A program made the position numbers and the translations under genes. The notes beneath the pieces were generated by a model that ran no database searches, was not told the origin of the DNA, and worked only from the letters and a program-made list of their open reading frames with translations. Shown here piece by piece: positions 2,800 through 55,876 of a stretch of 64,000 nt of DNA. Each line of letters starts with the position of its first letter. Position 1 is the first letter of the stretch. Source of the stretch: an uncultured bacterium (lineage in GTDB: Bacteria; Patescibacteriota; Minisyncoccia; Phycocordibacterales; Phycocordibacteraceae); contig CAVXAH010000001.1 in assembly GCA_963759775.1 (NCBI GenBank), positions 38,787 to 102,786 of the forward strand, in the 5' to 3' direction.

Positions 2800-3744
2800 A
2801 TGGAATACCACATCACACTTCCGAGTAAGCCGCGCGTTGTTTCAGAGGAAAATGTTTCAGGAACATACGAAATTGATTCACTGTATCCGGGCTACGGCCA
2901 TACACTTGGCAACTCGCTTCGCCGCATTATCCTCTCTTCGCTTCCAGGCGCCGCAGTAACCCAGGTCAAAATTGAAGGTGTTTCGCACGAATTTGCCACC
3001 ATGGAAGGCGTTCGTGAGAGCGTCATGGAGCTTTTGCTTAACCTGAAGCGTGTCCACTTCGTCCTACACGGAGATGAGCCACAAACCATTCGCCTCACCG
3101 CGAAGGGTTCAAAGGAAGTAACCGCAAAAGATTTTACGCTCCCAAGCCAAGTAGAAATCACCAATCCCGATCAGCACGTCGCTGATCTCTCAGGAAAGGT
3201 AGCGCTTGAGCTTGAGGCAACTATTGAGCGCGGCATTGGCTACGTGCCACGCGAAGTGCTCACGAAAGATAAGGTAGACATTGGCACGATTGCACTGGAC
3301 GCCGCTTTTACACCTATCAGGCGCTGTAACTACGAAGTAGAAAACATGCGCGTCGGAGACCGCACCGACTTTAACCGTTTGCGCATTCTTATTGAGACCA
3401 ACGGAACCATCGCACCACGTGTGGCACTTGAGCGCGCTATTGAGACAATGATTCACCAGCTCTCAGCCGTCATCGGTTTCCAGGAACTTGCCGCGGTGTC
3501 GGAAGAGGAGGGTGCTGATTCAGCTATGGGAGGCGAGAAGGATGGAGCGAAGATGAAAATCTCTGACCTCGGCCTCTCAACTCGCGTTACTACTTCTCTT
3601 GAGGAAGCAGGCATCAAGTCTGCAGCTGGTCTCGCACGCAAAACCGCAAGCTCGCTCAAGGAGCTTGATGGCATTGGCGACAAAGCAATTACTGAGATTG
3701 GAACCGCGCTCGCCAAAGTGGGTCTTGCGCTCAAGGGCGAATAA
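2800..3744 (+). CDS. rpoA: DNA-directed RNA polymerase subunit alpha
   Basis: 314 aa; N-terminal GHTLGNSLRR motif, C-terminal alpha-CTD; follows rpsD. Confidence 0.95.
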   Translation: MEYHITLPSKPRVVSEENVSGTYEIDSLYPGYGHTLGNSLRRIILSSLPGAAVTQVKIEGVSHEFATMEGVRESVMELLLNLKRVHFVLHGDEPQTIRLTAKGSKEVTAKDFTLPSQVEITNPDQHVADLSGKVALELEATIERGIGYVPREVLTKDKVDIGTIALDAAFTPIRRCNYEVENMRVGDRTDFNRLRILIETNGTIAPRVALERAIETMIHQLSAVIGFQELAAVSEEEGADSAMGGEKDGAKMKISDLGLSTRVTTSLEEAGIKSAAGLARKTASSLKELDGIGDKAITEIGTALAKVGLALKGE

Positions 3745-3749
3745 TCACC

Positions 3750-4104
3750 ATGAGTTCCCGAAACAAAACACGCTCATTCAACCGCCCCGCAAACCAACGC
3801 CGGGCACTCATCCGCTCCTTGGCGCGCTCTCTTATCATGCACGAGCGTATCTCAACCACGGAAATGAAGGCCAAAGAGCTTCGTCCGTATATTGAACGTC
3901 TCGTCACCTACGGCAAAAAGGGCACCCTCGCATCACGCCGTCTTGCTATCGCGAGCCTCCATGACGCCAGCTGCGGTTAAGAAGCTTTTCGGAGCAATCG
4001 CGCCTCGCTATAAGGAGCGCGCGGGTGGGTACACGCGCGTTGTGAAGCGTGCTCATCGCGGCTCAAACGACGCCCGCAAGCTTGCCTACATCCTGTTCGT
4101 ATAA
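3750..4104 (+). CDS. rplQ: 50S ribosomal protein L17, interrupted by an apparent single-nt frameshift near 3961-3975
   Basis: N-terminal 76 aa in frame 0 (to a stop at 3980) and C-terminal ...[26 protein letters not shown]... in frame +1 (to 4104); together a full-length L17. Confidence 0.8.
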
Positions 4105-4118
4105 TAACTAGCTACTTG

Positions 4119-4131
4119 CCCCGTTAGAGGC
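4119..4131. repeat. solo copy of the CCCCGTTAGAGGC terminal-repeat motif (family A) between rplQ and rplM
   Basis: 13-nt identity with the left end of the 55758-55876 element; no partner within 150 bp. Confidence 0.4.
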
Positions 4132-4147
4132 TCCACGATATAACCCT

Positions 4148-4549
4148 ATGACATCAACCATGACATCAACCCCAAAAACCAAAGCCTCTAATGGGGTGCA
4201 AGAAACGAGCTTCACCATTGACGCAACGAACCGCACACTTGGCCGTGTGGCAAGCGAGGCGGCGCATGCGCTTCTTGGGAAGCGTTCCGTGCACTTCGCA
4301 AAGCATATTCCACTTCCCGTGAACGTCACAATAGAAAACGTCGCCAAGCTCCACCTCCCCGAGCGCCGCACAAAAGGAAAGGTGTACCTCTACTACACCG
4401 GTTATCCAGGCGGCCAGAGGGCAGTACGCATGGACGAATTCATCGCTAAGAAGGGCATTGAAGAAGCTGTTCGTAAAACGGTAGATGGCATGATTCCTCG
4501 TAACAAGCTCCGCCGCGAGCGCATGAAGCGCCTTACGGTCACCAAATAA
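4148..4549 (+). CDS. rplM: 50S ribosomal protein L13
   Basis: 133 aa, L13 core similarity (NRTLGRVASE..., RMIPRNKL). Confidence 0.9.
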   Translation: MTSTMTSTPKTKASNGVQETSFTIDATNRTLGRVASEAAHALLGKRSVHFAKHIPLPVNVTIENVAKLHLPERRTKGKVYLYYTGYPGGQRAVRMDEFIAKKGIEEAVRKTVDGMIPRNKLRRERMKRLTVTK

Positions 4550-4550
4550 T

Positions 4551-4949
4551 ATGTCTACTTCTCATTTCATTACTGCCGTTGGTCGCCGCAAAACTGCGGT
4601 TGCAACGGTCCGTGTCACCAAGGCCGCCAAAGCTAGCGTGGTAGTAAACGGCAAGACTCCGAAGGAATATTTCAAGACTGATGAGCGTGCAAAAGTTGCT
4701 GAGGAAGCACTTGGAGGTGCAGAGAGTGCTGAACACTATGCAGTCGTTGCCCGTGTTCACGGTGGCGGTATCGCCGCTCAGGCAGGCGCACTTCGTCACG
4801 CTATTGCTCGAGCAATCATTGAGGCAGAGCCAAACACTCGCGCAAAACTGAAAAGCATTGGTTTCCTTACCCGCGACTCACGCGCAAAGGAGCGCAAGAA
4901 GCCAGGTCTCAAGAAGGCGAGAAAAGCCCCTCAGTGGTCAAAGCGATAG
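4551..4949 (+). CDS. rpsI: 30S ribosomal protein S9
   Basis: 132 aa, GRRKTAVA N-terminus, basic KKPGLKKARKAPQ.SKR C-terminus. Confidence 0.95.
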   Translation: MSTSHFITAVGRRKTAVATVRVTKAAKASVVVNGKTPKEYFKTDERAKVAEEALGGAESAEHYAVVARVHGGGIAAQAGALRHAIARAIIEAEPNTRAKLKSIGFLTRDSRAKERKKPGLKKARKAPQWSKR

Positions 4950-9554: not shown

Positions 9555-9701
9555 AACCCATTTCAAAATTTCGACACGAGCGGGGCACTGTCTCCGAGGG
9601 GGTCGCGAAGTACGACGGTGCGAGCGTTTCAGGCGTTTTTTGAGCACAAAAATGCCGTACCCGAGAAGGCAGTATCCCGTGAGTGGGTTTTGAAATGGGT
9701 T
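9555..9701. repeat. about 147-bp intergenic element with 14-bp terminal inverted repeat AACCCATTTCAAAA (family D, copy 1)
   Basis: about 85% identical to 51107-51246; internal conserved hairpin ggcgtttttt-gagcac-aaaaa(a)cgcc with a G-U compatible substitution. Confidence 0.7.
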
Positions 9702-10259: not shown

Positions 10260-10302
10260 TCAGCCCGCCTCTTGTGCTCCGTGGTATATTTTTGTCATGA
10301 AT

Positions 10303-10417
10303 CCCGTTAGAAATCGCGGACGCCGTCGAAGCCGTAAAGCGGGTTTTTTTACTAACCTTAATCGGATAGGGTTCGGTCGTGCAGTTACCTGCGTGTCCGC
10401 GTCCTATTTCTAACGGG
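10303..10417. repeat. MITE-like element (family A), TIR CCCGTTAGAAAT / ATTTCTAACGGG, abutting the tyrS ATG
   Basis: 12-bp perfect TIR extended by a covarying stem (atcgcggacgc / gcgtgtccgcg); internal TAATCGGATAGGG core shared, in inverted orientation, with 49096-49198. Confidence 0.7.
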
Positions 10418-11670
10418 ATGAACATCGCTGAGGATTTGAAGGCGCGAGGGCTCGTGGAGCACTCATCTGCTGATGTCGCCACCATTCTTGGCACCCCGCG
10501 TACGGTGTACCTCGGCATAGACCCCACTGCCGACTCACTCCACGTCGGGCACTTAGTTCCCATTCTTTTTATGAAGCGGCTTGCCGCGGCAGGTCATAAG
10601 CTTGTCTTTTTGGTTGGGGGCGGTACCGGCATGATTGGCGATCCGAAAGAGAAAGGGGAGCGCGTACTGCTTGATGAGAAAACCATAAGTAAAAATACGG
10701 AGGCTCTCAAAAAACAACTTGAAGACATTTTGGGACGCTTGCCATTCAAAATGGTAGACAACGCCACATGGCTCTCTAAGGTCCGTCTTGTGCCATTCCT
10801 TCGCGACATAGGAAAACACTTCACCGTAAACGACCTCGTAAAGCGCGACCTCATAGCAAAACGCCTTGCAACTCCGGATGAGAGTATTTCGTACACTGAA
10901 TTCACCTACTCACTTCTCCAGGCCTATGATTATTTGGAATTAAATACTAAATACCACTGCGATCTTCAGGTTGGGGCTTCGGACCAATGGACGAACATTC
11001 TTTCGGGTGTTGACCTTATCCGCAAGAAAAAGGAAAAGAAGCGTTCGCGCTCACGGTTCCTTTGGTTACTGACGCGAGCGGCAAAAAGTTTGGGAAATCC
11101 GAAGGAAATGCAGTATGGCTTGACCCTGAGAAGACATCTCCGTACCAGTTCTATCAGTTTTGGCTTGGCTTACCGGACGAAGGCATAGAAAAGTATCTCA
11201 AGATTTATACTACTCTTCCGCTTGGAGACATTGAGGCACTTATGGAGAAGCATCGCGCGGCTCCACAAGAGCGCGAGGCGCAAGAGGTGCTTGCGCGTTT
11301 CGCGACTGAGTCGTTGCATGGCCCAGCAAATACCGCAGAAGCGGCGGCGGCAACCGATGCGCTTTTTGGCGGACGCTCTCTTGAAAGCCTTAGTCGCGAC
11401 GAGCGTGAGGCGGTCATACGAGAAGTCCCATCCCTCGCACTTTCAAAGAAAGAACTTGAGGCAGGGTATCCACTTACTGAAGCACTAGTGGGAGGTAAGC
11501 TTGCTTCCTCAAAGTCCGATGCGCGCCGACTTATAGAAGGGAAGGCGGTTACTCTAAGCGGGCTGTTAATCGAAAATGCAGATCAAAAACTCTATCCGGG
11601 CGACCTCAGTGGCGGCCTCGCACTCATTCGCAAAGGCAAGCGCGATGTGCTCGTTTTGGTTTTGAAATAA
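10418..11670 (+). CDS. tyrS: tyrosyl-tRNA synthetase, apparent frameshift near 11030-11040 (A-run)
   Basis: class I HIGH motif (LHVGHL), KFGKSEGN (KMSKS-like), C-terminal S4 domain; pieces 10418-11188 and 11062-11670 colinear with TyrRS; start taken as MNIAEDLKARGLVE at 10418. Confidence 0.9.
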
Positions 11671-11699: not shown

Positions 11700-11783
11700 G
11701 CGTCGGTAGGTAAGTGGTCAAAACACGCACGCTGTAAACGTGCTGCCCTCGCGGCTTCGGAGGTTCGAATCCTCCCCGGCGCA
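11700..11783 (+). tRNA. tRNA-Tyr (anticodon GTA), type II with long variable arm; CCA not encoded
   Basis: acceptor stem GCGTCGG/CCGGCGC (one G-U), anticodon stem GCACG/CGTGC with loop CTGTAAA, T-arm GGAGG-TTCGAAT-CCTCC; D-arm pairing weak. Confidence 0.7.
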
Positions 11784-11798
11784 CACAAAAAAGGACGT

Positions 11799-11828
11799 CC
11801 CGAGCGTGAGCTCGGGCGTTTCTTTTTG
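11799..11828 (+). terminator. rho-independent terminator after tRNA-Tyr
   Basis: cccgagc-gtga-gctcggg followed by cgtttcttttt. Confidence 0.6.
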
Positions 11829-11833
11829 TGGCA

Positions 11834-11850
11834 GCCGGGGAGGATTCGAA
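11834..11850. repeat. inverted 17-nt copy of the tRNA-Tyr T-arm/acceptor 3' segment
   Basis: gccggggaggattcgaa is the exact reverse complement of ttcgaatcctccccggc at 11764-11780. Confidence 0.8.
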
Positions 11851-16654: not shown

Positions 16655-18004
16655 ATGGAACGAACACTCATAGGAGAACTTGGAAAACATACGGGAGAAA
16701 CGATTTCTATCTCAGGGTGGGTAGATGTTCGTCGCGACCAGGGAAAGCTCGTCTTTTTTGATTTCCGCGACCGAACAGGAATCGTCCAGGGCGTAGTGCT
16801 TCCAAAAAGTGAGGCCCTAGAAGCGGCGAAAGGTATCCGCAATGAATACGTCGTCCGCGTCGAGGGGGTCGTCAACAAGCGCCCAGAAAAAAATATCCAG
16901 ACGGACAAAGTAAACGGAGATATTGAACTAGAAATCAAAGCCATTGAGGTTCTCGCGCAAGCGGAAACACTTCCGTTTGACAGTGCCGCTGACCTTAACC
17001 TCGACACCCTTCTTGATTATCGCCCTCTCACCGTGCGCCGTAAGCGCGAACGCGCCCTTTTTAGAATCCAGCATGAACTGATTTCCGCATTTCGAACTTA
17101 CCTGAACGAGCAGGGCTTTACTGAATTCCAAGCTCCCAAAATAGTTGGTCCTGACGCTGAGGGTGGAGCCGGGGTCTTTAAACTTGAATACTTTAAAGAT
17201 AAGAGTGCGTACCTCGCCACCTCACCACAACTCTACAAACAACTCATGGTTGGCGCATTTGAACGCGTGTATGCCACGGGCCCACAATTTCGTGCAGAAA
17301 AACATTCAACCACCCGCCACCTGAATGAAATCTCAATGCTCGATTTTGAAATGGGATTCATCAAAGACTACACGGACGTGATGGATATGGTCGCTGGCTT
17401 TCTTCGGTATGCAACGAAACGTGTGGGAGAACGCCATGCCGAAGAACTCAAGGAATTTGGAACCCCGCTACCTCTTGCTCCAGATGCATTTCCAACGATG
17501 AAGCTTCGCGAGGCGCAGGAAATCATCTTTGCGGAAACAGGAAAAGATAAACGAGAGGAGCCTGATCTTGAGCCAGAAGATGAACGCTGGCTTTCTGAAT
17601 ACGCGCACAAGAAGTTTGGGAGCGATTTCTTGTTTGTGACACACTACCCGGTTTCCAAGCGGCCGTTTTACACGATGGAAGACCCCGAGGATCCTGGTTT
17701 TACAAAAAGCTTCGATCTTTTGTTCCGTGGCGTTGAAATTCTTTCCGGTAGTCAACGCGTTCATGAGTACCATACGCTTGTTGAAAAGATTAAGTCCAAG
17801 GGGCTTAACCCTGACAATTTTGCGTTCTATCTCATGGCCTTCAAGTATGGCCTTCCTCCACACGGTGGCATTGGCTTGGGACTCGAGCGTCTCACACAAA
17901 AATTCGCGGGTATTGAAAACGTAAAAGAGGCAACTCTCTTCCCGCGCGATATGAATCGTATTGACGTGCTTTTGTCAGCTGAAATTCCTGACGAAAAAGC
18001 ATGA
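16655..18004 (+). CDS. aspS: aspartyl-tRNA synthetase, archaeal/eukaryotic type
   Basis: N-terminal OB fold, class II motifs FRAE...HL.E and GIGLGLERL...FPRD; 449 aa without the bacterial insertion domain. Confidence 0.85.
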   Translation: MERTLIGELGKHTGETISISGWVDVRRDQGKLVFFDFRDRTGIVQGVVLPKSEALEAAKGIRNEYVVRVEGVVNKRPEKNIQTDKVNGDIELEIKAIEVLAQAETLPFDSAADLNLDTLLDYRPLTVRRKRERALFRIQHELISAFRTYLNEQGFTEFQAPKIVGPDAEGGAGVFKLEYFKDKSAYLATSPQLYKQLMVGAFERVYATGPQFRAEKHSTTRHLNEISMLDFEMGFIKDYTDVMDMVAGFLRYATKRVGERHAEELKEFGTPLPLAPDAFPTMKLREAQEIIFAETGKDKREEPDLEPEDERWLSEYAHKKFGSDFLFVTHYPVSKRPFYTMEDPEDPGFTKSFDLLFRGVEILSGSQRVHEYHTLVEKIKSKGLNPDNFAFYLMAFKYGLPPHGGIGLGLERLTQKFAGIENVKEATLFPRDMNRIDVLLSAEIPDEKA

Positions 18005-19425
18005 GGCTTGTTTTTACAAAAGGAACGATAGACGCCGCCCCCAAGGGTTATGTACGCGTGCGGATCACTCACGAACCAAAAGGAACGAGGAAGTTTGTTC
18101 GCGAGGGCGCCGTTGAGTGGCTTGAGCTCGGTGCAGGAAAACCAACGGACATGAACTACCGTAAGTTTATGGTGCTGTGCCGATCTGTTGTTCAAACCGC
18201 TAAAGGAAATAAAGCAAGAAAAATTGCTATTCAGTTTGACCGTACTCCTGAATTTTTTGAAAATTTGCAGAACCATACGCCTGAAGAAATTTCACGTGTC
18301 GCGGCAGAGAATTTTGAGATGGCGAACTTTGACTGGAATGTCTTTAAAACGAAACCAAAAGAGGGGTGGAATACGGTAGAAGAAATCCTCCTCTACGGCG
18401 GGTCTTCAAAGTCAATTGAGAAGGCTGCGCAAGTGGGTCAGATGGTGGGGCAGGGCGTAAATGCCTGCCGGGCACTTGCAAACACCCCAGGGGGCGACAT
18501 GACTCCCCTGAAGCTCGCCAAAGCCGCAAAAGAGGCTGTAAAAGGGCTTGCCGGTCAAGGTAACTACCCTTGGGCAAGAAAGAGATGGAAAAGCTTGGTA
18601 TGGGGGCTCTTTTGGGGGTCGCAAAAGGGTCGTCCGAGGAGCCTACATTTACCGTCATGGAGTACCGAGCTGGCGGCAAAGAAAAGCCCAGTCGTGCTTG
18701 CCGGTAAGGGAGTTACGTTTGATAGCGGCGGACTCAATTTGAAACCCTCCGGAAGCATTTATGAAATGCATATGGATATGTCGGGTGCCGCTTCTGTCAT
18801 ACACGCCGTTGCGCTCGCCGCTCGTCTCAAACTCAAAAAGAATGTCATCGGACTTCTTCCGTCCGTTGAAAACATGCCGGGCAATAGCGCGTATCGCCCC
18901 GGAGATGTGCTCAAATCTCTTTCTGGAAAAACTATTGAGGTCTTGAATACGGATGCAGAGGGTCGCCTGATTCTTGCCGATGCACTTACGTATGCAAAAC
19001 GTTTCAATCCGTCAGTTGTATTTGATGTAGCGACACTCACTGGTGCAGCAGTCTCTGCGCTTGGTCTTCATGCAAGCGGACTCATGACGCGCGACGACAA
19101 AGTCGCGAAAAAAGTGGAGGAAGCGGGCGAGGAGTCGGGAGATTATGTGTGGCGTCTCCCGCTTTGGGATGAATACGAAGAAGCGATAAAGGGAACGTTC
19201 GCTGATATCACTAATTCCGCAACGGGCCCGTACGCGCGTTCTGGCGGCGCAATAGAGGGCGGCATGTTCCTCTGGCAATTTGCAAAAGAACTCGGAGTGC
19301 CCGTGGGTGCATCTTGATATTGCGCCACGGATGACTGCGGCGCCGGGAGACGAGCTTGCGAAGGGTGCGGCCGGAGCCCCCGTGCGACTCCTGGTAAAAT
19401 TTATAGAACAATGGCCGTCACACTA
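18001..19425 (+). CDS. pepA: leucyl aminopeptidase (M17 family), with clustered apparent frameshifts (near 18550, 18575, 18690, 19300)
   Basis: NTDAEGRL signature and VLAGKGVTFDSGG; alternative frames encode KKEMEKLGMGALLGVAKGS and the true C-terminus WVHLDIAPRM...VRLLVKFIEQW ending at 19425. Confidence 0.85.
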
Positions 19426-19548
19426 AACAGTGTTGCCGCACGCACGATTACGAGAGTGGTACTATTTAAAAATGACTTTCCCTACACGAAAATCCCCAAG
19501 TCCTAATGACGGTGCGGCCAAAGCCGCGACACCGTTTTAGTGTGTCGG
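19415..19548. repeat. MITE-like element (family B), TIR CCGTCACACTAAAC / GTTTTAGTGTGTCGG, filling the pepA-scpA junction
   Basis: each TIR is the exact reverse complement of the opposite TIR of the GIY-YIG element at 22259-22542; the left TIR contains the pepA stop codon. Confidence 0.75.
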
Positions 19549-19551
19549 CCA

Positions 19552-20289
19552 ATGGAAACCCTAGTTCATCGCACTGGATTTTCTATTAAAACTGCCTCGT
19601 ATGAGGGACCCTTTGAGGTTGTGCTTGACCTTATAGAGGCACGTAAACTTTTGATAAATGAATTTGCGCTCGCAACCATAACTGACGACTACATTCAGCA
19701 TGTTCGAAAGCAGGAAACATTTCCGGTTGAGCAAACGGCAAATTTCATTCAAATCGCTGCAACTCTCCTCCTCATAAAATCAAAGTCGCTTATTCCGGAC
19801 CTTGAGCTCACCGAAGATGAGCAGGGGGATGTGGAGGATTTGAAGAGACGACTTGCTACGTACGAGCGTGTACGAGACGCGGCGCGCGAGCTTGCTCGTG
19901 TGTTTGGAAAAGAAGTGATGCTCCCGGCAGGGGAGAAGAAGCCTGAGGTCATGTTTGCGCCTGCGGCAGATATGACGAGCTTGGCGCTTTCCGAAGCGCT
20001 CGCGCGTGTACTTGCCGCACGCGAAGCAGTGGAAGAACTCCCCGAAGCGCGCGTAAAGCCGATGATTACTATTGAAGAGATGATGGATCGTCTCGCAAAA
20101 CGTGTGCAGTCGGCCATGACGCTTTCTTTCAAGGAATTCTCCGGAACCGCAAAAGAAAAAGTGGAAGTGATTGTTTCTTTCCTCGCTCTCCTTGAGCTTG
20201 TGAAGCAGGGTGCCGTTGGTGCGGAGCAGTTTGAAAACCACGGCGATATTCGTATTTCTCATACCGGCACAGGCGTCCCGAGCTATTGA
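19552..20289 (+). CDS. scpA: segregation and condensation protein A
   Basis: ScpA family N-terminus (FEGPFEVVLDLIEARKL..I.E..LA.ITDDY) and C-terminal winged helix; start taken at METLV. Confidence 0.8.
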   Translation: METLVHRTGFSIKTASYEGPFEVVLDLIEARKLLINEFALATITDDYIQHVRKQETFPVEQTANFIQIAATLLLIKSKSLIPDLELTEDEQGDVEDLKRRLATYERVRDAARELARVFGKEVMLPAGEKKPEVMFAPAADMTSLALSEALARVLAAREAVEELPEARVKPMITIEEMMDRLAKRVQSAMTLSFKEFSGTAKEKVEVIVSFLALLELVKQGAVGAEQFENHGDIRISHTGTGVPSY

Positions 20290-20554: not shown

Positions 20555-20597
20555 CAAGCCCCCGCTGCAAAACCTAGGTTTTGCAGCGGGGGCTTTA
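20555..20597 (+). terminator. rho-independent terminator
   Basis: agcccccgctgcaaaacc-tag-ggttttgcagcgggggcttt. Confidence 0.7.
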
Positions 20598-21309: not shown

Positions 21310-22257
21310 ATGGACACTCCAGAACTCCAGGCACTCGCGAAACATGCGCGCTTTATGAAAGAAGCCGGTATCGCGCTCCTCCTCTCTTGTGTGGTTCTTG
21401 CGGCATTTCTTTTTATTCCGCTTACTTCACGCTCAGAAGATACGAACGATGTGCTGATCACAAAACCCGTTGCAATAAACGCATATGCGGACATTCCGCT
21501 TCAAGCGGAAGCCGCGATTGTGTACGACTTGGTAAGCGAGGAAACCCTTTTTGATAAAAACGCAGATGCGCAGTTGCCACTCGCTTCGCTCACAAAACTC
21601 CTCACGGTGTACGCGGCGCTTGCAGAAATTGCACCCGGAACACCAATCACTATTTCAAAAAGCGCCTCGGCAAGTGAGTACCCGCGCCTTTTTGCTTCCG
21701 GCGAAACGCTCTCGCTCGCTGACCTCTCGCGTCTCACGCTTACCGGTTCTCTAAACGATGGTGCCGCCGCAATAGCGGAAACCATAGCCGCGCGCAAACA
21801 AATATCCATGCACGCGATGCTCGCGAGTGCTGCGACGGCGCTCGGTCTTTCACAAACGTACGCCGTAAACGGAAGCGGACTTGATGAGAGCCTGACTGTT
21901 TCTGGCGCATATGGCTCGGCACACGACGTGGCGCTTCTCGCAGGTGCGCTCGTCAAGCGTGCTCCCACCATTGCTTCTGCAACCACCGAATCCTCCGCAA
22001 CTGCTGCCAATGAGTCCGGAAAAACTTATACCGTAAACAATACAAATCCGACTGTTATTTATACGGCACGACTTCTCCTTTCAAAGACCGGATTCACCGA
22101 CCTCGCCGGCGGAAACTTGGTGCTTGTCTTTGATGCCGGAATTGACCATCCTGTTGCGGTTGTCGTGCTCGGCTCCACCGAAAAAGACCGCTTCACCGAT
22201 GCAACTGCACTTGTTGCCGCTACCCTTGCGCACTTCTCAGGAGTTTCTTCTCTATGA
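21310..22257 (+). CDS. D-alanyl-D-alanine carboxypeptidase (S11 serine peptidase, PBP5-like)
   Basis: SxxK (ASLTKLLT), SGN-like (NGSGL) and KTG (KTGFT) motifs; N-terminal membrane anchor. Confidence 0.8.
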   Translation: MDTPELQALAKHARFMKEAGIALLLSCVVLAAFLFIPLTSRSEDTNDVLITKPVAINAYADIPLQAEAAIVYDLVSEETLFDKNADAQLPLASLTKLLTVYAALAEIAPGTPITISKSASASEYPRLFASGETLSLADLSRLTLTGSLNDGAAAIAETIAARKQISMHAMLASAATALGLSQTYAVNGSGLDESLTVSGAYGSAHDVALLAGALVKRAPTIASATTESSATAANESGKTYTVNNTNPTVIYTARLLLSKTGFTDLAGGNLVLVFDAGIDHPVAVVVLGSTEKDRFTDATALVAATLAHFSGVSSL

Positions 22258-22258
22258 C

Positions 22259-22542
22259 CCGACACACTAAAACAACCTTGCGAGACGACTATGTATTACG
22301 TATATATTTTGCAAAGTAAGAAAGACGGGAAGTTTTACACGGGATACACCACTGATTTACGACGTCGTCTCGCAGAACACACGACAAGAGCCTCAATCTC
22401 AACGCGCTCGCGACTTCCTCTGCAACTGTTATATTACGAAGCATATATGTCGCAGGCCGACGCAAAATCTAGAGAGTATCGCCTTAAGACTTCTCAAGGC
22501 GCGCGCACTGCATTAAAGCGACGAGGTCGTTTAGTGTGACGG
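22259..22542 (+). mobile_element. TIR-flanked GIY-YIG gene unit (family B putative autonomous copy)
   Basis: imperfect 15-18 bp TIRs CCGACACACTAAAAC / GTTTAGTGTGACGG immediately flank the ORF; right TIR overlaps the ORF stop and the mraY start; same TIR family as 19415-19548. Confidence 0.55.
22291..22539 (+). CDS. GIY-YIG nuclease superfamily protein (YhbQ/UPF0213-like)
   Basis: 82 aa, YVYIL..K.GK.YTGYT.DL.RRL.EH then Y.E motifs. Confidence 0.8.
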   Translation: MYYVYILQSKKDGKFYTGYTTDLRRRLAEHTTRASISTRSRLPLQLLYYEAYMSQADAKSREYRLKTSQGARTALKRRGRLV

Positions 22543-23606
22543 GTATGATTAGTCTCGCCGCTCAAGTTTTCATCCCATCTGCAATCGCGTTCGCGCTTGG
22601 CATCGTCTTTGCGCCACTTCTCGCTGGAATTTTATATGAAAAGAAAGCGTGGAAAAAGAAAGCGGGGAAGGGTAATGGTATGGGCGGCGGTGGCACTCCT
22701 ATTTTTGATGAACTTCATAAGATACGGGAGGTTTCAACGCCACGCATGGGCGGCATTTTAATCTGGGCATCGGTTTTAGCGACCGCATTTGGAATCTGGC
22801 TCCTCGCTCGAACCGTGGGTGGTGTTTTTCTTGACCTCAACTTCATAGACCGAAGCGAAACGTGGCTCCCCATTTTTGCACTGTTTGTTGGGGCCATTGC
22901 GGGACTCTTTGATGACCTTCTAGAGATATCTTCAGGCACGGGAGGTCTCTCTCTTCGCGGAAGACTCGCCATTGTAGCGGTAATGGGGCTTGCTGCGGGA
23001 TGGTGGTTTTATACAAAACTCGGCGTTACGGCTCTCGGCATTCCTTTCGGGAATCCGCTTGAACTGGGCGCTCTTATCATTCCATTTTTTGCTCTGGTAA
23101 CCCTCGCTATTTATGCGGGCGGGACAATTGATGGAATTGACGGACTTGCGGGGGGAGTTTTTGCAATTATTTTCATGACGTACGCCGGCATCGCCTTTGG
23201 AGAGAGCCAGTTCGCACTCGCAACCTTCGCTGCAACGTGTGCAGGCGCGACACTGGCTTTTCTTTGGTTCAACATCCCACCCGCGCGCTTCTATATGTCG
23301 GAAACCGGCAGTATGGCTCTTACGCTTGCGCTTGCCATGACCGCGTTTGCGGCCGATAACCTTGCAAAGGGCGTGGGGGTGTTCGTGCTTCCTCTCGTCG
23401 CGCTTCCACTCACCGCAACGGTCATTACGACCCTGCTTCAGGTGTTTTGGAAAAAGTCCTTTCATACCAAACTTTTCATGGTCGCGCCTATTCACCATCA
23501 TTTTGAAGCTCTTGGTTGGCCACCCTATAAAGTCACGATGCGCTACTGGGTGATTACGATCATTGCCGGTGTTTTGGGCCTTTCAATCGCGCTCATTTCC
23601 GCGTAG
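22536..23606 (+). CDS. mraY: phospho-N-acetylmuramoyl-pentapeptide transferase
   Basis: DD motif, DGIDGLAGG, HHHFE motif (PIHHHFE), 10 TM helices. Confidence 0.9.
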   Translation: MTGMISLAAQVFIPSAIAFALGIVFAPLLAGILYEKKAWKKKAGKGNGMGGGGTPIFDELHKIREVSTPRMGGILIWASVLATAFGIWLLARTVGGVFLDLNFIDRSETWLPIFALFVGAIAGLFDDLLEISSGTGGLSLRGRLAIVAVMGLAAGWWFYTKLGVTALGIPFGNPLELGALIIPFFALVTLAIYAGGTIDGIDGLAGGVFAIIFMTYAGIAFGESQFALATFAATCAGATLAFLWFNIPPARFYMSETGSMALTLALAMTAFAADNLAKGVGVFVLPLVALPLTATVITTLLQVFWKKSFHTKLFMVAPIHHHFEALGWPPYKVTMRYWVITIIAGVLGLSIALISA

Positions 23607-31268: not shown

Positions 31269-31404
31269 CCCTGGGGTACAGCATGGCATTGCTCCTAAGT
31301 GGCTAGCCGTGACGTAGAAATATAGAGATTATTAAATCAATACCGCACGAGGAGCAGAGCGGACATCGGAGCAAAAAGCCACGATGCCATGCTGTCCCAC
31401 GGGG
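31269..31404. repeat. MITE-like element (family C), 21-bp TIR CCCTGGGGTACAGCATGGCAT, directly upstream of the rplI start
   Basis: right end ATGCCATGCTGTCCCACGGGG is a near-perfect reverse complement; second copy at 53369-53500. Confidence 0.7.
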
Positions 31405-47362: not shown

Positions 47363-49095
47363 AGTGAGGAGGGCGTAGTGGCACGGTCGGGCGGTACGTC
47401 GTAGTAATTAATCAGGAAGTGAGTCAGGTTCATGAAGGTAGAAGTGAGTGTTTCGGATGCGTAGCGAACCCCTTGCGGATCGTTGGTGTAAAGGAGAATG
47501 ATAAACCGCGGCGCGTACGAAGGAAAGTAGCCGAAGAAGGAGTGGAAGTACCTATCTTTGTAGTACCCGCCTCCGGGCATGGTGAGCTGGGCAGTTCCGG
47601 TCTTTGCCGCAACAGACATAGACGCTATTTTTTCCTTTCCCTGCGCAAGGTCAAAGTCAACGACGTGAGTAAGCATTCCCGCGACCGTGCGCACTGCCTC
47701 CGGAGAAAACACCTCCACTGTCTCCGGTGGCTCAAGAGTCCGCGTGATGCCGGTATCAAGCTTAATGGCGCGCGTGAGGTAGGGCCGAGCCATTGCCCCG
47801 TCGTTTGCGAGCGCACTTAAGGCACTTATCATTTGCACCGGTGTTACCGCGATACCTTGGCCAAATGAGGCGGTGTCGTAACCTACCTGCTGCGGCCTTG
47901 AGATGTTTTGGAGAAGACTTCCCGTTTCACTTGGAAGGTCAATGTGTGTCTTCTCGCCAAAGAGGGTCGTGAAGTACGTTCGGAGTCGCTCTTTGCCGAG
48001 TTGTCGCCCAACCCAGGAGGCGCCGAGGTTCAAAGATTCCGACAAAATTTGCTGTACCGCTACCCTTCCGCGCGCCTTGAGGTCAAAGTTGCAAATAGTG
48101 TAGGTATCCACGTCCATACAACCCGTATCGTTATAGGTTGAGTCGGCGGTTATCGCATCCGCATCAAGGCCAGCGGCCACAGTGAGTGGCTTCACTATGG
48201 AGCCAAATTCATACACATGCTCCACAAGCGGATTCCCGAGAACCGCCGGGTCAACACTTGAGAGATCGTTCGGGTTGTAGGTCGGGACCGTGAGAAGAGC
48301 GAGAACGGCTCCTGTGCGCGGGTCCATAATGATTCCGCCTGTTTCTTTGCTCTTAAATTTCGCGTGCACTGCTTTAATTTCACTCTCAAGCCGAGTCGCA
48401 ACCGCGGGCTCAATGGTGGTTACCACATTGCCCTCACGTACGTTTTTTGTATCAATGAGTAAATCCCCCGCGCCTGAGAAAAGGGTTGCGAAGAAATTTT
48501 TATAAAGAGAGTCACCGCTGCGCGCGAGTGTGTGGTCATAGTACGACTCAAGACCTGTTCGTCCGGAAAGACTGTCGCCGCTACCATAGGAAACGATGCC
48601 AACTGACTGTGCCGCAAGCGTCCCTCCAGGATACTCTCTCCAGCGCTCACGAAGCACTATGACGCCGGGTATTTTAAGCGCGGCGAGCGCGCGACCTTCC
48701 TCTTCCAAAAGATGATGCGCTATCTCAACATACACACGCTCGGACCGTAGAGATGCGGCGAGGAATACCTCACGGTCAATGGTAGAGGTGGCGAGTGCGG
48801 TCGTAAGGGAGTTGTAAGCGGCTTCGGGGTCTTTAAGGGTCTGGGGATTCATTGCGAGCAAAAACCCCGTTTGAAGGGTCGCGGCTGAAATGAGTGCTCC
48901 GTCCTTGCGAGTGAAATAAATAGACCCGCGATCAAAAAGTCCACTTATGCCGCCGGAAAACTGCCGCTCGGCCTTGAGCGCATACGTTTCTCCCTGCACG
49001 ATTTGGACAATGTAGAGGCGTCCGGCGATAAGGATCGCGATGATAAGAATTCCGAGAAATACAAGTCGGATACGGAGTCTAAACTGCGCGCGCAT
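47359..49095 (-). CDS. ftsI: penicillin-binding protein (transpeptidase; FtsI/PBP3-like)
   Basis: SxxK (SIVK), KTGTA motifs, N-terminal TM; dcw position before murF. Confidence 0.9.
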   Translation of the reverse strand: MRAQFRLRIRLVFLGILIIAILIAGRLYIVQIVQGETYALKAERQFSGGISGLFDRGSIYFTRKDGALISAATLQTGFLLAMNPQTLKDPEAAYNSLTTALATSTIDREVFLAASLRSERVYVEIAHHLLEEEGRALAALKIPGVIVLRERWREYPGGTLAAQSVGIVSYGSGDSLSGRTGLESYYDHTLARSGDSLYKNFFATLFSGAGDLLIDTKNVREGNVVTTIEPAVATRLESEIKAVHAKFKSKETGGIIMDPRTGAVLALLTVPTYNPNDLSSVDPAVLGNPLVEHVYEFGSIVKPLTVAAGLDADAITADSTYNDTGCMDVDTYTICNFDLKARGRVAVQQILSESLNLGASWVGRQLGKERLRTYFTTLFGEKTHIDLPSETGSLLQNISRPQQVGYDTASFGQGIAVTPVQMISALSALANDGAMARPYLTRAIKLDTGITRTLEPPETVEVFSPEAVRTVAGMLTHVVDFDLAQGKEKIASMSVAAKTGTAQLTMPGGGYYKDRYFHSFFGYFPSYAPRFIILLYTNDPQGVRYASETLTSTFMNLTHFLINYYDVPPDRATTPSSL

Positions 49096-49198
49096 CCCGT
49101 TAGAAATAGAACACGAACACTCTCGAAGTGTTGTGCCCTATCCGATTAGGTCCAATAATCATATGCCTCATCATATCGTGTTCGTGATTTCTAACGGG
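49096..49198. repeat. MITE-like element (family A), TIR CCCGTTAGAAAT / ATTTCTAACGGG, abutting the ftsI start codon
   Basis: 12-bp perfect TIRs, covarying sub-terminal stem (agaacacgaaca / tgttcgtgat), internal CCCTATCCGATTAGG core inverted relative to 10303-10417. Confidence 0.7.
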
Positions 49199-49213
49199 AC
49201 GCATTGTACAAGA

Positions 49214-51096: not shown

Positions 51097-51106
51097 CGTC
51101 AAAATC

Positions 51107-51246
51107 TATTTCAAAACCTCAACACGAGCGGGGCACTGCATCCGAGGGGGTCGCGAAGTTGGGCGGTGCGAGCGTTTCAGGCGTTTTTTGAGCACAAAAA
51201 ACGCCGTACCTGAGGAGGTAGTGGCCCGTGAGTGGGTTTTGAAATA
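51107..51246. repeat. about 140-bp element with 12-bp TIR TATTTCAAAACC (family D, copy 2), ending 4 nt from the lysK stop
   Basis: about 85% identity with 9555-9701 including the perfect hairpin ggcgtttttt-gagcac-aaaaaacgcc. Confidence 0.7.
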
Positions 51247-53368: not shown

Positions 53369-53500
53369 CCCTGGGGTACAACATGGCATCGTGTCTTTAG
53401 CTCCAACGATCAAAAGCTATAAACCTTTTGTTTTTATGTGACGTCTGGCAACTGAAATAAACGTAGGACACGAAGAGTAATGCCATGTTGTCCCACGGGG
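53369..53500. repeat. MITE-like element (family C) copy 2, TIR CCCTGGGGTACAACATGGCAT / ATGCCATGTTGTCCCACGGGG, 48 nt upstream of greA
   Basis: TIRs match 31269-31404; internal sequence differs but keeps sub-terminal complementarity. Confidence 0.7.
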
Positions 53501-55226: not shown

Positions 55227-55493
55227 TTATCCCGTTAGAGATAGGAAGCGCTTGAGCCGGTTTTTGAGATAACGCTTACCCATTCCCGTTTTGAGGTACT
55301 TTTCACGCGCAAAAGCATCTTCGGCCGTTTGAGATGCTTCGTAATATATGAGTGTGAATGGACCACGTCCTTTAGTGTACGCCACTCGATTTGAATTGTG
55401 CAGGGCCAAGCGCTTCCGAAGATCTTTCGTGCAGCCGGTATACCATCGACCGTCACTTTTAGCTTGGAGAACGTACACATACACAAACGACAT
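55227..55493 (-). CDS. GIY-YIG nuclease superfamily protein (YhbQ/UPF0213-like), paralog of 22291-22539
   Basis: 88 aa, VYVYVL....G.WYTGCT.DL.KRL..H and YYEA motifs. Confidence 0.8.
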   Translation of the reverse strand: MSFVYVYVLQAKSDGRWYTGCTKDLRKRLALHNSNRVAYTKGRGPFTLIYYEASQTAEDAFAREKYLKTGMGKRYLKNRLKRFLSLTG

Positions 55494-55506
55494 AATCTCT
55501 AACGGG
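55231..55506 (-). mobile_element. TIR-flanked GIY-YIG gene unit (family A putative autonomous copy)
   Basis: perfect 12-bp TIRs CCCGTTAGAGAT / ATCTCTAACGGG lie 1-3 nt outside the stop and start codons of the GIY-YIG ORF; same TIR family as three MITE-like copies. Confidence 0.6.
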
Positions 55507-55758
55507 ACGCGATAATACTCGTCTCAAAGAATCTGCGCACGGAATAGGAAAGCAGTGCGGCGAGTGCCCCAAGAGTGCTGTACAGAAAGGGTGGATGTAT
55601 ACCCGGGACATAGTAGAGAATGTCAGCGAAAAGCCCTATAGCAAGCACCGAAAGTGGCGAGACGATTCCCGCAAGTAGCGCGAGCAGTCCCGATACGACT
55701 GCTGGAAATACAAAAAGTGAGGCGATGGCAGACAAAATAATGGTCGCGCGGATGTTCA
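55499..55758 (-). CDS. mreD: putative rod shape-determining protein MreD (small polytopic membrane protein)
   Basis: position after mreC; hydrophobic 85-110 aa; annotated from the GTG at 55758 because the longer ATG start (55834) lies inside the repeat element. Confidence 0.45.
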
Positions 55759-55876
55759 CCCCGTTAGAGGCAGGTCGCGACCCAACATCAACTCGAGATC
55801 GTTGGGTGAAAAAGAGATTTTTACCGTAATTCATATTTAACTCTTAATCGAACGGGACCGCGGCCTCTAACGGGGG
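55758..55876. repeat. MITE-like element (family A), CCCCGTTAGAGGC / GCCTCTAACGGGG, overlapping the mreC 3' end and mreD 5' end
   Basis: imperfect about 20-bp TIRs including a covarying extension (aggtcgcgac / ggaccgcggc); internal ctcttaatcgaacggg resembles the family core. Confidence 0.6.

Follow-up and report, generated by a model that had tools for sequence, protein, structure and literature searches.

A unit of 286 bp with a single gene, which codes for a GIY-YIG nuclease of 82 aa, has inserted between a dacA-like gene and mraY, where 5 bp of the target (TATGA) have been duplicated. It is one of several related elements, coding and gene-less, which we have grouped into families A, B and C. 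That units of these types are mobile elements is well supported: there are empty orthologous sites, duplications, a nested copy, related copies with different flanks and cognate gene-less copies. We favour, by a modest margin, the interpretation that they form an IS-like family of transposons, with the nuclease as the only gene and with MITE derivatives. The role of the nuclease as the mobility enzyme is an inference, for which there are no biochemical or genetic data. It rests on three observations: no other gene is present, purifying selection on the nuclease is strong, and there is a tie between nuclease and repeat, in that the repeat can be predicted from the clade and extends over the C-terminal codons of the gene.

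The B unit and its gene-less partner

The B unit is found at positions 22258–22543 of the window, the whole 64-kb stretch of DNA which has been analysed. Its intact ORF is placed between imperfect terminal inverted repeats of 15–16 bp, all of them given here on the plus strand. The left, start-side repeat is CCCGACACACTAAAAC (22258–22273), which has an inverted copy at 19534–19549. The right, stop-side repeat is GTTTAGTGTGACGGG (22529–22543): it encodes RLV followed by the stop codon TGA. The ORF (22291–22539, plus strand) is UPF0213/YhbQ/Slx1-like; its catalytic residues are intact and it has a deletion of 7 aa near the C-terminus. Its stop codon (22537–22539) falls within the right repeat. 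In the close homologues the C-terminus is G(R/H)(L/F/S)V, i.e. it is encoded by the same right repeat. The ORF fills about 87% of the element; no further ORF fits in the 286 bp and no promoter-like site is found inside the unit. On one side there is a dacA-like gene with a Peptidase_S11 match and on the other mraY with a Glycos_transf_4 match, and the unit has the same orientation as the surrounding operon. On both sides there is a copy of TATGA on the plus strand: the left one (22253–22257) holds the stop codon of the dacA-like gene (TGA, 22255–22257), the right one (22544–22548) supplies the start codon of mraY (ATG, 22545–22547).

The insertion is demonstrated by comparison with five relatives which share the gene order, among MraY homologues 78–89% identical. 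In their contigs the order is AspRS, PepA (in some of them), ScpA, ScpB, DacA, MraY, FtsW, MurG. The dacA/mraY junction is uninterrupted in all five; in four of them there is a 4-nt overlap and the exception, L224, has a spacer of 9 nt between both genes. A single (T)ATGA is found at the junction in the three closest relatives. The closest one, L201, has a single TATGA and reads ctcTATGAtcag (in a longer form ...ctctcTATGAtcagtc); L202 has a single ATGA and reads ...tctttATGAttagta. The window reads ...tctcTATGA[CCCGACAC...286 bp...GTGACGGG]TATGAttagtc and, when the junction is rebuilt without the unit, it becomes ctcTATGAttag. The uninterrupted junction of the relatives, with only one (T)ATGA in the closest of them, shows that the unit has been inserted and that TATGA is its target-site duplication. 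The target was the ATGA overlap of the dacA stop and the mraY start. The left duplicate keeps the stop of dacA and the right one keeps the start of mraY, therefore neither gene has been damaged. The B unit meets in this way the IS criterion of a target-site duplication together with absence from orthologous sites.

A second element of family B, 136 bp long and without any gene, is found at 19414–19549 on the minus strand. It has the ends of the B unit in the opposite orientation, flanked by CAATG at 19409–19413 and 19550–19554. The sequences CCGTCACACTAAAC at 19415–19428 and GTTTTAGTGTGTCGG at 19534–19548 are exact reverse complements of both ends of the B unit. These are the only matches of the B ends with no mismatch in the 64 kb, and the arrangement is reciprocal. 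According to our own arithmetic, an exact 15-mer should recur by chance about 1e-4 times and an exact 14-mer about 5e-4 times in 128 kb, counting two strands. The interiors of both elements are unrelated, and that of the gene-less element is non-coding.

The gene-less element is also an insertion relative to the orthologous pepA/scpA junction. The frame of pepA now ends at a TAA (19424–19426) within the repeat of the element, and the ATG of scpA (19552) sits in the right copy of CAATG. When the element is deleted together with one CAATG the result is GAACAATGGAAACCCTAG, a 13-nt overlap of pepA and scpA; in the relatives this overlap is exactly 13 nt, as found from gene coordinates and from the DNA of L224. 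The junction rebuilt as empty is GAACAATGGAAACC. The element has the structural features of a MITE: it is short, non-coding, bounded by terminal inverted repeats, flanked by a duplication, and has its ends in common with a coding element of the genome. It is the only gene-less copy of family B in the 64-kb window, a count which does not extend to the remainder of the 595-kb source genome.

A preliminary description, prepared from the sequence alone, had proposed an 82-aa GIY-YIG ORF between imperfect inverted repeats, with the ORF stop in the right one; both points held, the first by the sequence and by a Pfam match. It had limited the unit to 22259–22542, with CCGACACACTAAAAC at 22259–22273 and GTTTAGTGTGACGG at 22529–22542. 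This was partly right: each repeat is one base longer outward. It had stated that the ends of a gene-less element at 19415–19548 are the B repeats in exact reverse complement, as we have confirmed. Its claim that the right repeat overlaps the start of mraY, either GTG 22536 or ATG 22545, has failed. The product of 353 aa in the source genome (P0121) and all homologues begin at ATG 22545, so that the start is in the right copy of TATGA, just outside the repeat. The TATGA direct repeat was missing from that description and is added here.

Other families in the window and in Patescibacteria

Apart from the two elements of family B, the window contains one coding and three gene-less elements of family A and two gene-less elements of family C. 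The repeat families follow the patterns CCCG[AT]CACACTAAA; TCCCGTTAGA; and CCC[CT]G[GT]GG[GT]ACA. Every element occupies a gap between genes, in a window which is about 91% coding according to a crude ORF estimate. The coding unit of family A (55227–55507, minus strand) is found in the gap between mreD-like and pbp2-like genes. It has repeats TCCCGTTAGAGAT at 55230–55242 and 55495–55507, and a GIY-YIG ORF of 88 aa at 55227–55493, also on the minus strand, whose product is identical to P0241 and scores 53.6 bits with Pfam PF01541. One gene-less copy of this family (10302–10418, plus strand) has 117 bp, terminal repeats TCCCGTTAGAAAT, flanks TGA(A) and a DNA fold with z=-5.6; it is placed between divergent genes whose start codons shared CATG. 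Another one (49095–49199, minus strand) has 105 bp, a direct repeat CGCA and a DNA fold with z=-5.8. Both have in common an interior motif AATCGGATAGGG. The third is a diverged A-like element (55759–55875, no strand assigned) with terminal repeats CCCCGTTAGAGGC, between mreC-like and mreD-like genes. The two elements of family C, also without assigned strand, have ends of 21 nt. One has 136 bp (31269–31404), with terminal repeats CCCTGGGGTACAGCATGGCAT and CCCCGTGGGACAGCATGGCAT and a direct repeat CATA; the other has 132 bp (53369–53500), a direct repeat CAAG and a DNA fold with z=-5.2. No cognate nuclease gene for family C is found within the 64-kb window. As single-stranded DNA the gene-less copies fold through their ends, with z values from -2.4 (element 19414–19549) to -5.8, although one of the folds was computed with a mis-set boundary.

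A perfect palindrome of 40 bp at 20556–20595 was considered as a minimal repeat pair and rejected: a T-run comes after its GC stem, and its score is that of an intrinsic terminator.

Related genes are frequent in databases. The B ORF has 184 relatives, almost all in Kaiserbacteria, Parcubacteria and other Patescibacteria; for the A ORF there are 2501 or more. We have studied 80 metagenome loci which encode relatives, 77 of them usable, by searching the flanks of the ORF for inverted repeats. A repeat with a score of 12 or more was found in 44 of the 77 loci, with a length of 13–23 bp and mostly perfect; shuffled controls had a mean score of about 6.3 and a maximum of 13. A wider repeat search gave about 51 positive loci out of 77, around two thirds. 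The left arm begins 13–30 nt upstream of the ATG, the right arm is placed at or over the stop codon, and the unit length varies across loci from 280 to 320 bp. About one third of the family (16–20 loci) has no inverted repeats. In the protein tree these repeat-less loci form separate clades, apart from a B clade and an A clade. In one locus (L205) a repeat-less paralogue adjoins repeat-bearing units. The B clade has ends of the type CCCC[CT]CAC, with repeats in about 28 of its 29 members; the A clade has ends of the type CCCGTTAGA / CCCCGTGAGA, with repeats in most members. Both repeat-bearing clades have their outer 8–10 nt conserved, while inner positions are specific for each subclade and have been altered together in both arms: the inner variants ...CCCAGAATAGTCT, ...CCCAGAAAGCAT and ...CCCAGAAACATT are each perfectly paired with their own partner arm. 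The repeat sequence co-varies with the protein clade.

Gene-less copies are also found in these loci. In L124 an element (4006–4283) encloses a nested copy of 133 bp (4121–4253); their flanks are CTTGA and CTTTG, a 5-bp direct repeat in each case. L154 has a gene-less copy at 4165–4291 with flanks TGCG. L162 has at least four, of 116–125 bp, plus a remnant whose right end abuts the coding unit. A copy of only 66 bp is found in L200 and a hairpin of 37 bp in L131. In the A type the ends of gene-less copies are asymmetric, as in the coding unit, with ...AAATCGCGGAC on the start side and ...AAATAGGACGCGGAC on the stop side; the AGGA of the stop side corresponds to codons of the C-terminus in coding copies. 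This retained asymmetry speaks for an origin of the gene-less copies of A type from coding units. In the B type the ends differ by A/T because the stop-side end carries the TGA stop codon, and this asymmetry is also present in L205 and in the gene-less copy of the window.

The preliminary description had suggested that the design of a coding copy plus a MITE recurs in at least two lineages; this held for families A and B and is extended by a third family, C, which has only gene-less copies in the window, with the family A ORF corrected to the coordinates, length and strand given above. It had proposed an alignment of homologues with their flanks, which we carried out on the 80 metagenome loci: the repeat families do co-vary with the protein clades. 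The idea would have been refuted if other paralogues had no flanking repeats and the gene-less element were unique. This was not borne out, since about two thirds of the loci are flanked by repeats and gene-less partners exist elsewhere.

Several features indicate movement. Direct repeats of at least 5 bp flank 17 of 58 elements, as compared with 1.4% in controls with mismatched flanks; for at least 4 bp the values are 21 of 58 and 4.8%. About half of the elements have no clear direct repeat. The length of the duplication appears to be specific for each family, 5 bp in B and 3–4 bp in A and C. Elements which are 83–89% identical occupy unrelated flanks, with about 50% identity. In viral contigs we found 17 weak relatives (48% identity or less), and flanking repeats were absent in all six that were examined. 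The contig sets of P0044 and P0264, compared for recent movement among identical proteins, show strain-level rearrangements beside the units; a clean presence/absence of a unit was not found in them.

A group of units is associated with tRNA genes: 9 of the 44 coding units overlap the first 2–6 nt of a tRNA gene on the same strand (Ala, Val, Pro, Trp). In these cases the terminal GGGC of the element constitutes tRNA positions 1–4 and is followed by the 5-bp repeat, which is CTATA, CGGTA, CGCTA or TCGTA. On the opposite side there remains an orphan GGGC plus the repeat, a copy of the tRNA 5' end. These insertions rebuild what was cut, as in the ATGA junction of the window.

The ORF has dN/dS values of 0.04–0.11 in the closest pairs, which corresponds to strong purifying selection. 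The nearest copies compared have dS 0.5–2 and there are few gene copies per genome: as the nearest copies are old and the copy number is low, movement must be rare. Neighbour genes are co-oriented with the unit in 25 of 28 loci upstream and in 18 of 23 downstream. This co-orientation, together with the absence of a promoter, fits with expression by read-through.

The pairing of the arms might suggest a different explanation: that the repeats act mainly as RNA, forming a long stem in the operon transcript, for example as an RNase III site or as a translational lock on the mRNA of the nuclease, with the gene-less copies as operon punctuation and mobility as a secondary or ancient feature. In its favour, the arms are mostly perfect over 14–21 nt, and where relatives differ both arms have changed. 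The left arm extends as far as the start codon or over it, folding through the ends is found for the whole unit as well as for the MITEs, and the units are co-oriented with operons. A stem cut by RNase III would also explain the tolerance of insertions in rRNA and tRNA leaders, an inference which we draw from PMC11270868. Against it, a G-U bias of the sense strand is not seen, although 12 G.T versus 9 A.C mismatches are too few to decide. There is no Rfam match: only two tRNAs are found at gathering thresholds, and the MITEs and the unit give none at E<=1. Furthermore, the gene-less copies are found in both orientations, and target-site duplications, empty orthologous sites and the nested insertion are left unexplained. 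We consider this explanation very unlikely. A mobile element could still have such an RNA stem as a further property, which would render its insertions harmless.

The nuclease and how the elements may move

The B ORF matches Pfam PF01541 with E=1.9e-15 and 57.4 bits (cut-off 22.6). Residues Y5, Y16, G18, R26, H30 and E50 do not vary among 42 sequences, to which both ORFs of the window belong. The profile of the family matches BH0048 (1ZG2, E=4.5e-15) and EF2693 (1YWL, E=1.4e-9), and more weakly Slx1. The requirements for membership in the UPF0213/YhbQ-like group are met: the closest relatives are UPF0213 and the protein has a single domain with 82–90 aa. It is a bare catalytic domain with a short basic C-terminal tail or helix of about 15 aa. 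An AlphaFold2 model (pLDDT 82) predicts as closest folds I-TevI (6.8), a GIY-YIG restriction enzyme (6.7) and UvrC (5.8); the structure-specific nucleases Slx1/HIGLE are also named as closest fold from the model. The criterion of an alpha/beta GIY-YIG fold is met by this prediction. In the source annotation the product P0001 has 76 aa from a TTG start, and thereby loses the GIY tyrosine; comparison with homologues places the true start of the ORF at ATG 22291. The window B ORF lacks 7 residues of the C-terminal tail when compared with close homologues, so this copy may be inactive.

A GIY-YIG gene between conserved genes might be a free-standing homing endonuclease gene, whose product cuts alleles without the gene and which is then copied by homologous recombination, with repeats which are either incidental or the recognition site. 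The evidence is strongly against this possibility, which is very unlikely. With 82–90 aa the protein has no DNA-binding domain, and it scores 24 bits with TIGR01453, where the cut-off is 56. Related elements occupy sites which are unrelated to each other: gene junctions, different tRNA genes and the inside of another element. Homing produces no target-site duplication, yet one flanks the insertion, and there are gene-less copies with the same ends.

If the units are instead IS-like transposons moved by their own nuclease, the process may take place as follows. Transcripts of the ORF would arise by read-through from the operon of the host. The nuclease would recognise the ends of the element, where the outer 8–10 nt are specific for the clade and the inner part needs only a match of one arm with the other. 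The form recognised may be paired or branched DNA: this is suggested by arms which match almost perfectly and co-vary, and by a fold like that of Slx1, since enzymes of Slx1 type are structure-specific. The nuclease would then cut at the ends and make a staggered cut in the target, of 5 nt in B and of 3–4 nt in A and C, and host repair (fill-in) and ligation would complete the insertion. Gene-less copies would be non-autonomous derivatives, moved in trans. In streamlined genomes copies would survive mainly where the end plus the duplication rebuild either stop/start overlaps or the first nucleotides of a tRNA. No GIY-YIG enzyme is known to us to perform strand transfer; these enzymes hydrolyse DNA, so the joining would need to come from the host or from another factor. 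A further difficulty for this reading is the small size of the protein: it is unlikely that a single domain of 82–90 aa reads about 20 bp in a sequence-specific way. Other points against it are the repeat-less third of the family, the elements with no clear direct repeat, the age and low number of the copies, the C-terminal deletion in the window B ORF and the single gene-less copy of family B.

The main rival explanation is that of non-autonomous elements moved by an unlinked conventional transposase, with the nuclease as a passenger; coding and gene-less forms alike would then be MITEs. Nicks made by such a passenger might, for example, favour a spread mediated by repair, or the gene might serve for addiction or defence. 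Terminal inverted repeats with a duplication of 3–5 bp are a hallmark of DDE-type transposition. A joining activity is, to our knowledge, not found in GIY-YIG enzymes, and family C has two gene-less copies with no cognate gene in the window. On the other hand, the repeat co-varies with the nuclease clade across dozens of genomes, the right repeat overlaps the C-terminal codons and the stop of the nuclease itself, a larger element with the same repeats is seen neither in the 80 loci nor in the window, and the ORF is under strong purifying selection. We consider an unlinked transposase unlikely.

The preferred reading of an IS-like family can be taken a step further, and here we would not decide for or against. 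The nuclease of 82–90 aa might be itself the transposase, recognising the ends as paired or branched DNA in the way of Slx1. The units of about 285 bp would then be the smallest known autonomous mobile elements, with thousands of them in CPR/Patescibacteria, including those in tRNA and probably in rRNA genes.

If the nuclease does drive the movement, this would be an unrecognised way of DNA transposition, beside those of DDE, HUH, serine, tyrosine and Cas1-type enzymes, and autonomous elements could be smaller than hitherto recognised. It would explain the abundance of genes annotated as 'GIY-YIG nuclease family protein' in CPR/Patescibacteria, as well as the non-intron GIY-YIG insertions and the short ORF-less insertions in CPR rRNA genes. 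Persistence in genomes which are about 91% coding would also be explained, as stop/start overlaps and tRNA 5' ends are rebuilt. A nuclease so small, acting on a defined DNA substrate, would be easily testable and might serve as a tool. Even if the units are moved by something else, they constitute a large undescribed family with terminal inverted repeats and cognate MITEs, overlooked by annotation pipelines.

Comparison with known systems

Insertions of a similar nature have been reported in CPR rRNA genes. Tsurumaki et al. 2024 (PMC11270868) described non-intron insertions which encode GIY-YIG proteins, at scattered and poorly conserved sites, alongside many ORF-less insertions shorter than 200 bp. 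The words 'inverted repeat' and 'palindrom' are absent from the main text of that paper, and the only match for 'transpos' concerns LAGLIDADG proteins. By analogy those insertions are likely to be elements of the same kind, although their sequences were not compared with ours. We found no description of GIY-YIG elements bounded by terminal inverted repeats in prokaryotes in the open-access literature searched, which leaves most subscription journals uncovered. Nor did we find there a mobile-element context for UPF0213/YhbQ proteins (1ZG2, 1YWL) or for Slx1/HIGLE, and none is known to us. Slx1 works together with Slx4 on branched DNA in repair, while structure-specificity of the CPR proteins is only a conjecture.

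GIY-YIG homing endonucleases, such as I-TevI and the Seg enzymes of T4, have in common with our units the GIY-YIG domain and a selfish gene placed between conserved genes. They differ by going to one cognate site through recombination, with no terminal inverted repeats, duplication or MITEs. With over 200 aa, homing enzymes have an additional domain for DNA binding. The criteria which define them, a DNA-binding domain and a single site without duplication, are not met in either case.

Bacterial IS with their MITEs, such as IS630/Tc1-type elements and the orphan MITEs Correia/NEMIS, are similar in many respects: they have terminal inverted repeats, a short duplication, coding copies together with gene-less copies of 100–140 bp, ends common to both forms, intergenic insertion and presence/absence between relatives. 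Our elements differ in that their sole ORF is a GIY-YIG protein of 82–90 aa, which does not belong to the DDE, HUH, serine or tyrosine enzymes. They also differ by their size of about 285–320 bp for the whole unit, by arms which are mostly perfect and co-vary, and by having the start and stop of the ORF inside or against the repeats. The smallest known IS, IS200, has about 700 bp. The IS criterion of terminal inverted repeats is met, but not that of a recognised class of transposase.

The REPIN-RAYT system is similar in a different way: it has a single small nuclease gene flanked by copies of an inverted repeat, with gene-less inverted doublets elsewhere in the genome, a low gene copy number, a long persistence and co-evolution of repeat and protein. 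RAYTs are HUH/Y1 enzymes related to the TnpA of IS200, whereas here the enzyme is GIY-YIG. REPINs are not known to show a target-site duplication, nor has movement of the RAYT gene been seen; in our case the coding unit itself is an insertion with a duplication. The elements described here have a layout like that of IS with MITEs and a logic like that of REPIN-RAYT; they fail the test of the enzyme which defines each of these systems.

Coding units at the starts of tRNA genes

Coding units of the B type, which carry a GIY-YIG nuclease gene between their own terminal repeats, and one unit of the A type are placed on the first 2–6 nt of genes for tRNA-Ala, Val, Pro or Trp. This is the case in the metagenome loci L122, L124, L126, L141, L147, L150, L182, L185, L123 and L205. 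Positions 1–4 of the tRNA are replaced by the terminal GGGC of the element and an orphan 5' tRNA fragment remains upstream. Such a placement suggests either that the target is chosen by its likeness to the element's own end or that there is strong survivorship.

In L205 we have also found a paralogous GIY-YIG gene of 79 aa (4442–4681), which lies 170 bp downstream of a repeat-bearing unit and has no flanking inverted repeat at all. The observation extends to contigs L204, L206, L208, L209 and L212. Among contigs of the same population the neighbours of these genes vary, with breakpoints near positions 3307 and 4738 of L205 and a 689-bp indel. It may be that this region is a rearrangement hotspot.

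Small repeats in the window

Two gene-less elements form family C (window 31269–31404 and 53369–53500): they are 132–136 bp long and have 21-nt ends, with sequences CCCTGGGGTACA[A/G]CATGGCAT and CCCCGTGGGACA... The direct repeats, CATA and CAAG, are 4 bp long. The window contains no GIY-YIG gene cognate to this family; the repeats of the A clade of the nuclease, for example CCCCGTGGAATA in locus L179, are similar to the family C ends.

Another repeat, of 143 bp, has two copies about 90% identical (9555–9697 and 51103–51246), both in intergenic gaps and with the same strand orientation. Its ends are ATTTCAAAA...TTTTGAAAT and its conserved interior is GC-rich. It has no match in Rfam, even at E <= 1, and may be a further small element, the fourth, or else a structured RNA of unknown kind.

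Gene starts and reading frames

A diverged, gene-less A-like element is found at 55759–55875, between the mreC-like and mreD-like genes; 250 bp separate it from the family A coding unit. The apparent N-terminus of a 111-aa ORF (55499–55834) comes from the sequence of this element, so that the annotated start of this gene is probably wrong. The family B ORF (22291–22539) is called in the public annotation of its genome as a protein of 76 aa (P0001), with a TTG start at 22309 which removes the MYYVYI motif and its catalytic tyrosine. Systematic mis-calling is likely for small GIY-YIG genes of this sort.

The gene pepA (M17 leucyl aminopeptidase, 18001–19426) has three frame changes, near 18570, 18700 and 19290; after each of them the true protein sequence resumes in a different frame. 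Either the gene is a pseudogene or the changes are indel errors of the single-contig assembly, in which case other small ORFs of the window could be affected too.

Palindromes and hairpins

An inverted copy of the 3' end of tRNA-Tyr (11700–11784) lies 13 nt downstream of it; the whole structure covers 11764–11850, with arms of 37 nt which are 81% complementary. The tRNA end could thus form half of a terminator hairpin, or the copy could be left over from an integration or rearrangement. A perfect palindrome of 20+20 nt (20556–20595, AAGCCCCCGCTGCAAAACCT / AGGTTTTGCAGCGGGGGCTT) with a T-rich tail behind it lies between a small ORF and scpB. Its miRNA matches in Rfam are weak and spurious. This palindrome has the appearance of an intrinsic terminator of unusual length.
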